This document shows positions 30,425 to 31,000 of a DNA stretch of 64,000 nucleotides, one piece after another (positions within the stretch are counted from its first letter, which is position 1; every line of letters begins with the position of its first letter). A program made the translations under genes and the position numbers. The DNA comes from Escherichia phage Mizar. The notes beneath the pieces are model-generated. The model was given only the letters and a program-made list of their open reading frames with translations. It had not been told where the DNA came from and did no database searches. The stretch is from the sequence record PV714129.1. One strand, written 5' to 3'.

Positions 30425-30638
30425 AAGGAATTTCCTCATCGGTGGCAAGGTCATATTCGACCAATTGGATAGGCTCATTAATACCATATCCACGTACAGT
30501 GATATCAGTTGTCGGATAGTTTCCAGTAATATCACCTATTCTAAATGCTTCAATGAATGATTGCTCGCCTGAGCAACTAAACCAGGCGGCAAAACATTTT
30601 AAAACATCTTCAGACCCTTCTATAATCAATTTAGCCAT
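30414..30638 (-). CDS. Hypothetical acidic protein
   Basis: 74-aa ORF; stop overlaps the grcA-like start. Confidence 0.45.
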   Translation of the reverse strand: MAKLIIEGSEDVLKCFAAWFSCSGEQSFIEAFRIGDITGNYPTTDITVRGYGINEPIQLVEYDLATDEEIPYVD

Positions 30639-31000
30639 TATAGACTCTCAGTAAAGGTACGAGCTATAACGTCGCGCTGCTGTTCCGGAGTCAGAGAGTT
30701 AAAGCGAACTGCATAACCGGATACACGGATGGTCAGCTGCGGATATTTTTCCGGATGCTTAACTGCATCTTCCAGAGTTTCGCGACGCAGAACGTTAACG
30801 TTCAGGTGTTGACCACCTTCAATTTTAACTTTAGGTTGATGTTCAATTTCAATTTCGCGGGCGTGTAAACCGTAGAAAATTTCCGGGTCTACAATAGCGT
30901 CTTCTTTAAAAGTCTTAGAGACAATAATCCGGGCTTGAGTACCGTCTTCAAAATAAATAGTGCCTTTATGTTCACCTTCAAGAATTTGATATGCTTTCAT
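30638..31000 (-). CDS. grcA: Autonomous glycyl-radical cofactor (GrcA/YfiD-like)
   Basis: C-terminal glycyl-radical motif [29 protein letters not shown], as in PFL/GrcA; 120 aa. Confidence 0.8.

Follow-up and report, generated by a model that had tools for sequence, protein, structure and literature searches.

[quoted passage not shown] As far as the account of Wagner et al. 2001 (pmid 11444864) given in PMC8683613 goes, both proteins receive their glycyl radical from the activase of pyruvate formate-lyase (PFL), and both restore the activity of oxygen-cleaved PFL in vitro. In YfiD, the disordered N-terminal 60 residues matter for the binding of cleaved PFL as well as for activation (PMC8683613). 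Y06I is the product of the T4 gene vs.6; a YfiD homolog in T4, to which the first-pass annotation of the present locus refers, is indeed published (Wagner et al. 2001, in PMC8683613). The same gene was listed among 11 T4 ORFs of unknown function that are conserved in five out of five T4-like genomes (Nolan et al. 2006, PMC1524935). Neither the gene nor its family nor its biochemical function is new. The accessible literature yielded no in vivo phenotype of vs.6, and the searchable literature, with some relevant papers outside reach, contained no description of host-to-phage conversion in this gene.

An evolutionary parallel comes from cyanophages, for which Zeidner and colleagues in 2005 and Sullivan and colleagues in 2006 reportedly described intragenic recombination between host and phage copies of psbA. 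There, as in vs.6, a metabolic gene of a T4-like phage swaps segments with the host copy, and mosaics are the result. Unlike in psbA, the exchange in vs.6 affects only a single short tract with sharp boundaries, in a gene that has otherwise diverged strongly; it also appears to run in one direction, host to phage, and the identity to species-level host alleles rises to 99-100%.

The locus described here lies in Escherichia phage Mizar (sequence record PV714129.1), and the window, i.e. the whole stretch of DNA that was analyzed, comprises 64,000 nucleotides (Table 1). The gene starts with ATG and encodes 120 amino acids according to the ORF listing of the window; the 29-residue glycyl-radical ending quoted in the first-pass annotation is present, and the product matches the Pfam family Gly_radical (PF01228) with E = 2.2e-18 and 67 bits (cut-off 22). 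The best solved relative in a phmmer search is GrcA (PDB: 6owr; E = 1.9e-42), with residues 21-120 placed on 27-127, followed by the C-terminus of PflB, with residues 57-120 placed on 696-759; the glycine of the RVSGY motif (G95) stands opposite G734 of PflB. Like E. coli GrcA, the window protein consists of about 60 N-terminal residues and a C-terminal radical domain, and the N-halves of the two proteins are homologous. Unlike GrcA, it is 7 residues shorter, its N-half is only about 28% identical and follows phage codon usage, and a lytic phage encodes it and expresses it from a cluster of its own genes. With the C-terminal domain of PflB it shares 77% identity over the last 64 residues, a 13-residue stretch and the radical glycine included, but it possesses neither the catalytic barrel nor Cys418/Cys419.

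Table 1. Features of the vs.6 locus and related genes in the window.
Feature	Position	Strand	Basis
vs.6 / Y06I-type gene, GrcA-like autonomous glycyl-radical cofactor	30638..31000	-	ATG ORF, Pfam, synteny
N-module, codons 1-60, old phage-typical homolog of the GrcA N-half	30821..31000	-	composition, codon usage, hhalign
Putative host-derived tract, gene nt ~179-352, EGGQHLN...RTFT	30649..30822	-	near-identity to E. coli grcA
Phage-specific 3' tail, GAG AGT CTA TAA	30638..30648	-	alignment with phage genes
Gly95 codon, predicted glycyl-radical site (= GrcA G102, PflB G734)	30716..30718	-	phmmer alignment, sequence reading
Shine-Dalgarno-like GAGG, 4-nt spacer to the vs.6 ATG	31005..31008	-	sequence reading; function predicted
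vs.5 homolog, translationally coupled downstream gene	30414..30638	-	ORF, syntenic phage annotation
vs.7 homolog, upstream gene of the tightly packed cluster	31007..31315	-	ORF, synteny
denV	32361-32786		recognizable among window ORFs
nrdD, anaerobic ribonucleotide reductase, glycyl-radical enzyme	13292..15109	-	NCBIfam NF006732, 905 bits vs cut-off 657
nrdG, NrdD activase	12825..13295	-	TIGR02491, 198.9 bits vs cut-off 126

Because its N-half has diverged, the window protein scores 158.6 bits against the NCBIfam equivalog TIGR04365 (spare_glycyl), just below the cut-off of 170 bits, and it is therefore filed here as a phage Vs.6 ortholog that works like GrcA rather than as a bacterial GrcA equivalog. 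As a full-length pyruvate formate-lyase it does not qualify (TIGR01255, 89.6 bits against a cut-off of 994); only residues 697-760 of E. coli PflB match the window, at the C-terminus of vs.6, and the catalytic enzyme of about 760 residues is absent. The exact protein occurs in public databases within a 90% cluster of 148 phage proteins, which takes in RB14 vs.6 and Mosigvirus proteins, and the family was found by tblastn in 1588 phage records, spread over T-even-like Straboviridae (of Escherichia, Klebsiella, Enterobacter and Aeromonas) and T5-like Demerecviridae. The RefSeq name of T4 vs.6 is 'autonomous glycyl radical cofactor GrcA'. Many phage records label the gene 'pyruvate formate-lyase', 'acetyltransferase-related' or 'hypothetical protein', and the first of these labels is a misnomer. 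The exact window protein (30641-31000) has also been deposited as EJG6624760.1 '[Shigella sonnei]' on a contig of 169,206 bp, which is a whole T-even phage genome within a bacterial assembly.

At the level of sequence organization, vs.6 falls into two parts of different character. Residues 61-120 are identical to residues 68-127 of E. coli GrcA (60/60), which confirms the earlier impression of a C-terminus very close to the enterobacterial protein, while pairwise protein comparison gives no more than a weak alignment with GrcA for the first 60 residues. The DNA is 97% identical over the last 183 nt of the gene, and all 5 differences from E. coli grcA are in third-codon positions; identity falls to about 50% directly upstream of GAAGGTGGT, at codon 60/61. 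Three of these five differences sit in the last 10 nt of vs.6, in a 3' tail which is common to other genes of the Mosigvirus type and unlike the tail of the Tequatrovirus type. The remaining tract of about 172 nt differs from E. coli grcA at two positions, both synonymous, one of which (CGC) also exists in E. coli as a natural allele (strain 504239). Composition and codon usage separate the two parts as well: GC content is 0.36 in the N-module (GC3 0.25) and 0.49 in the C-module, and when 60-codon chunks are ranked by phage codon preference, the N-module is at the 99th percentile (about 1% score higher) and the C-module within the lowest 5%, with codons atypical for the phage (CTG for five of six Leu, CCG for all three Pro).

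The N-module is nevertheless related to its bacterial counterpart. In an hhalign comparison of profiles from 15 phage N-modules and 13 bacterial GrcA N-halves, the match has a probability of 98.1% and E = 8.9e-14 over 60 columns, with 28% identity. The similarity to GrcA hence goes beyond the short glycyl loop, the outcome that would have spoken against the first-pass annotation: the whole 60-residue domain is shared and the N-half is a distant homolog, and the first-pass annotation is supported. From the sharp step in identity, the shift in codon usage and GC content, and the homology of the N-half, vs.6 is an old full-length homolog of grcA in which the C-terminal part appears to have been replaced recently.

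Vs.6 of T4 (Y06I, NP_049730) is organized in the same way. It also has 120 amino acids, of which 113 are identical to those of the window protein (94%, 7 substitutions); its gene has the same neighbors (vs.8, vs.7, vs.5, regB, denV) and is likewise a mosaic with an E. coli-like C-terminal tract, and it is the biochemically validated phage spare part, according to what PMC8683613 relates of it. Unlike in T4, the N-module of the window is of the Mosigvirus type, with 11 fixed nucleotide differences and 88% DNA identity, and the 3' tail reads GAGAGTCTA in the window and GAAAGTTTG in T4. The window protein keeps R73, unlike reference T4 with H73. In the latter gene (locus L095:3558-3920), the R73H change (CGT to CAT) lies within the host-derived tract and is the only non-synonymous change observed among E. 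coli-type tracts, T2 and the window having retained Arg.

What the tract derives from can be read from its distances to phage and bacterial genes. When the window was compared with 5426 complete E. coli genomes by megablast, positions 1-25000 gave no match, and the sole match of positions 25001-50000 was 30630-30822, which hit grcA and, at 79%, pflB. A general host-like composition of the window was rejected, as positions 1-50000 are without an E. coli match beyond the tract. Identity to T4 runs at 65-85% along the profile and rises to a plateau of 97-100% exactly over the tract; the synonymous divergence (dS) that separates the window from T4 drops from 0.59 in the N-module to 0.048 in the tract. 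Relative to E. coli, the dS of the tract amounts to 0.048 for the window and 0 for T4, compared with 0.38 between E. coli and Citrobacter and 1.13 between E. coli and Salmonella. Judged by these distances, the phage tract is E. coli species-level sequence. In the protein and nucleotide alignments to the C-termini of GrcA and PflB, GrcA is the closest, PflB reaching 77% in protein and 77-79% in DNA; because of the latter value, pflB was rejected as donor in favor of grcA. Transfer from phage to host was rejected too: the bacterial tracts diverge in step with the remainder of grcA and with the species relationships, and the direction is therefore from host to phage.

The same pattern recurs throughout the T-even phages of E. 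coli. Queried with E. coli grcA, 752 phage records gave matches, never extending beyond nt 199/200-384 of the gene, and 638 of them are at least 95% identical. We compared six genes of the Mosigvirus type with seven of the Tequatrovirus type. Over the 180 nt of the N-module, 11 differences are fixed between the types, and over the 172 nt of the tract there is no such difference (Fisher P = 0.0009); fixed differences reappear in the last 11 nt of vs.6. On average, the types diverge by 11.2% in the N-module, by 2.6% in the tract and by 19.5% in the tail, and the mean tract divergence from E. coli is 1.3%. Individual phages carry between zero and six private tract changes, mostly synonymous, and members of both types (L099, L101, OES_C-2) are identical to E. 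coli at 172 of 172 positions. The 3' limit of the host-like tract varies among the phages. Flanks that keep their lineage markers and a tract that coalesces on the host sequence are what repeated copying from the host predicts; exchange among phages with random end points would be expected to leave a different pattern. In the present sample, phage and host tract alleles seem to interleave. As a separate observation, the vs.6 CDS of Escherichia phage OES_C-2 (L277) has 357 nt instead of 363 nt, with its N-module offset by 6 nt, and its tract stays E. coli-like as far as the stop codon, with a single difference over 183 nt, which gives it a different 3' end.

Phages of Klebsiella allow a comparison against another host genus. 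K. pneumoniae is absent among the 80 loci of our bacterial contig scan, and Klebsiella alleles were taken from metagenomes, where a degenerate pattern for the 17-residue Klebsiella-type motif retrieved 56 bacterial grcA loci and 5 phage loci. By exact protein look-up, the commonest bacterial protein is GRCA_KLEP7 (Klebsiella), and a second one is the GrcA of Raoultella; some of the bacterial alleles are assigned to genus level only. Eight Jiaodavirus genes were compared, six from isolates and two from metagenomes, with the metagenomic L194 as reference. The others differ from it at 0-6 of 180 nt in the N-module and at 0-2 of 25 nt in the tail, and at 0-12 of 158 nt in the tract, most of them at 3-12. 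These tracts match different bacterial alleles. The commonest Klebsiella allele (K. pneumoniae-type) is matched by L194 at 158 of 158 positions and by the isolate L124 at 157 of 158; the isolate KMI12 is identical to a second Klebsiella allele (L192; 158/158), and the metagenomic L189 agrees at 156 of 158 positions with the allele of the Raoultella-type GrcA protein (L183/L200). In the isolate KP182 the tract is itself a mosaic, K. pneumoniae-like in its 5' part and Raoultella-like in its 3' part (150-151/158). L189 and L194 are metagenome contigs, in which alleles of phage and host could in principle have been merged during assembly. Of the 22 variants among the phage tracts, 18 also occur as polymorphisms in bacteria (P = 0.006). 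More broadly, the K. pneumoniae-type tract is matched at 95-99% by 106 Klebsiella-phage records, whose identity to the E. coli tract is only 85-89%; reciprocally, E. coli phages reach at least 95% against the E. coli tract and about 87% against that of Klebsiella.

On the evidence of these alignments, recurrent gene conversion from host to phage is the best reading of the tract pattern. The explanation that survives next best, improbable though we consider it, is a single ancient capture of grcA by an ancestor of the T-even phages, after which purifying selection kept the C-terminal half host-like and no recurrent conversion took place. In its favor, host identity has one and the same 5' limit (grcA nt 199/200) in 752 out of 752 phage records, Tequatrovirus, Mosigvirus and Jiaodavirus are related genera of the Tevenvirinae, and the amino-acid sequence of the glycyl-radical domain is very strongly constrained in all hosts. 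Selection on the protein, however, cannot preserve synonymous sites, and tract dS between the phage genera is less than a tenth of that in the adjoining N-module (0.048 vs 0.59). Moreover, the grcA genes of Citrobacter and Salmonella are farther from E. coli than the phage tracts are, the CGC variant of the window is an E. coli polymorphism, the 3' limit differs from phage to phage, and near-identical Jiaodavirus genes have tracts which match different bacterial alleles at 99-100%. Recurrent conversion thus remains the preferred reading, and the gene of the window is very probably a Mosigvirus Vs.6/Y06I spare part with a tract repeatedly converted from the host's grcA. We are evenly divided on the more general proposition that, in Tequatrovirus, Mosigvirus and Jiaodavirus, vs.6 continually receives a fresh copy of its C-terminal ~160-175 nt from the grcA of a recent host, by homology-dependent gene conversion bounded by the universally conserved codons for EGGQHLN and RTFT.

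Tracking of the host is not universal, however, and such a general rule was rejected, since several phage groups are without a close host allele and no phage record searched contained a Salmonella-type tract. The tracts of T5-like phages are only 72-76% identical to the best host allele sampled, and those of Krischvirus, Karamvirus, Slopekvirus and Pseudotevenvirus are 72-85% identical to any host allele sampled. Plausibly, conversion is restricted in this way since recombination needs sufficient starting identity. Host labels and tract alleles also sometimes disagree, given that 'Salmonella phage PSE-D1' has a Klebsiella-type tract (97.1%) and 'Pseudomonas phage PsgM02F' a T4-type vs.6 (94% in protein). 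Two further oddities turned up among the sequences screened. Five IMG/VR 'viral' contigs (L172-L176) contain a C-terminus which is 100% DNA-identical to E. coli pflB; these are cases of host pflB inside provirus-type contigs and not phage spare parts. The GTDB assembly of the Firmicute Vagococcus sp. WN89Y (L044) includes an enterobacterial grcA, within the 90% protein cluster of Klebsiella GrcA, which is probably contamination of that assembly.

The genomic neighborhood of vs.6 is conserved. The gene lies between vs.7 and vs.5, in the regB-denV region, in the window as well as in its Mosigvirus relatives and in T4, and the order vs.8-vs.7-vs.6-vs.5 equals that of mar005P1, ATK47 and T4; the surrounding 1.9 kb are 97% identical to the Mosigvirus phages vB_EcoM_G53, ATK47 and mar005P1. 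Genes are tightly packed here: the Shine-Dalgarno-like GAGG upstream of vs.6 overlaps the stop codon of vs.7, and the stop codon of vs.6 overlaps the ATG of vs.5 (TAATG), whose start is at 30638. The vs.5 homolog has no family match in a profile search, and a scan of 29200-33200 for promoters and terminators stayed at chance level (12 promoter-like sites versus 11.3 expected). Two further irregularities of the region were noted. Positions 31582-31851, within the vs.8 homolog, form a second island of 92-98% identity to T4 amid 65-85%; it has no match in the 5426 E. coli genomes and looks like a mosaic exchange between phages, not host capture. Between denV and vs.8, positions 31964-32353 (ORF 32024-32419, 131 aa) are without a T4 counterpart in the pairwise alignment and are probably an insertion or replacement specific to Mosigvirus.

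As the window contains neither a full-length PFL nor a PflA-type activase, Vs.6 would need PflB and PflA of the host. A search of the window for such an activase, by tblastn with a PflA fragment, returned just a weak match of 34% in nrdG; nrdG was rejected as a PFL activase, the PflA models scoring far below their cut-offs. The presence of nrdD and nrdG, stated in the first-pass annotation, is supported by both genes passing the cut-offs of their NCBIfam equivalogs, and we reasonably infer that vs.6 and nrdD/nrdG together sustain anaerobic glycyl-radical metabolism in infected cells.

This company raises the alternative that Vs.6 is a spare part or helper for the phage NrdD and not for the host PFL. 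NrdD is likewise a glycyl-radical enzyme encoded in the same window, and a role in nucleotide metabolism was proposed from the Gly_radical match, at a time when nothing beyond the Pfam hit was available (Nolan et al. 2006, PMC1524935). We nevertheless regard it as very unlikely: the C-domain of Vs.6 is identical to that of GrcA and 77% identical to the C-terminus of PflB, its other family matches are all glycyl-radical enzymes of the PFL type with no NrdD model among them, and T4 Y06I complements cleaved PFL, as PMC8683613 reports from Wagner et al. 2001. Just as doubtful is a role as an anti-host decoy, which would titrate the PFL activase or occupy PflB in order to redirect or stop fermentation. 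The N-half is strongly unlike that of host GrcA (28% identity), and it is the N-half that controls activation and the binding to cleaved PFL in YfiD (PMC8683613), yet the T4 protein restores and does not block PFL activity in vitro in the account of PMC8683613, the radical domain has been kept identical to the functional domain of the host, and the gene is conserved over many phage families alongside genes for anaerobic nucleotide synthesis. Least probable of all is an artefact of sequencing or assembly that merged host grcA reads into phage contigs, for although the tract is short (~170 nt) and some of the contigs that support the pattern come from metagenomes (L189, L194), the reference genomes of T4 and T2 and hundreds of independently sequenced isolates show the same structure, phage tracts have private synonymous changes of their own, a subclade has derived changes in common (four shared by mar005P1 and WFL6982), and the isolates KMI12 and L124 match the pattern of the metagenome contigs.

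Under the preferred reading, that of a PFL spare part with a tract repeatedly converted from the host, the following course of events may be proposed. After infection, vs.6 would be made from the tightly packed vs.8-vs.7-vs.6-vs.5 cluster, the timing being presumed. Host PflA would put the radical on Gly95 of Vs.6, whose C-domain, identical to that of host GrcA, would replace the piece of PflB lost by oxygen cleavage at Gly734. The conversion of pyruvate to acetyl-CoA and formate would thereby be restored, to the presumed benefit of the infection; such rescue matters since, once the cell is infected, expression of grcA and pflB from the host genome is no longer possible. On the evolutionary side, the C-terminal ~160-175 nt of an old full-length grcA homolog would be replaced time and again, by way of homologous recombination (gene conversion), with grcA sequence from the current host, and on account of this repeated overwriting the phage would always carry the radical domain of its host.

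The identification of vs.6 in itself changes nothing, though there are clear grounds to correct the labels 'pyruvate formate-lyase' and 'hypothetical protein' that the gene bears in phage records. If true, recurrent conversion would represent a clean and ongoing case of gene flow from host to lytic phage in the best-studied group of phages, and the tract would be a natural record of the recent host species, of use for the host assignment of metagenomic T-even phages. If conversion is confirmed, it would also allow the rate of host-to-phage gene conversion to be measured in a model system, and it would explain how a phage auxiliary protein stays matched to PflB and PflA. The pattern suggests that strictly lytic T-even phages, though they destroy the host DNA, acquire short host tracts by recombination, and that they apparently do so frequently enough to keep these tracts identical to species-level host alleles.
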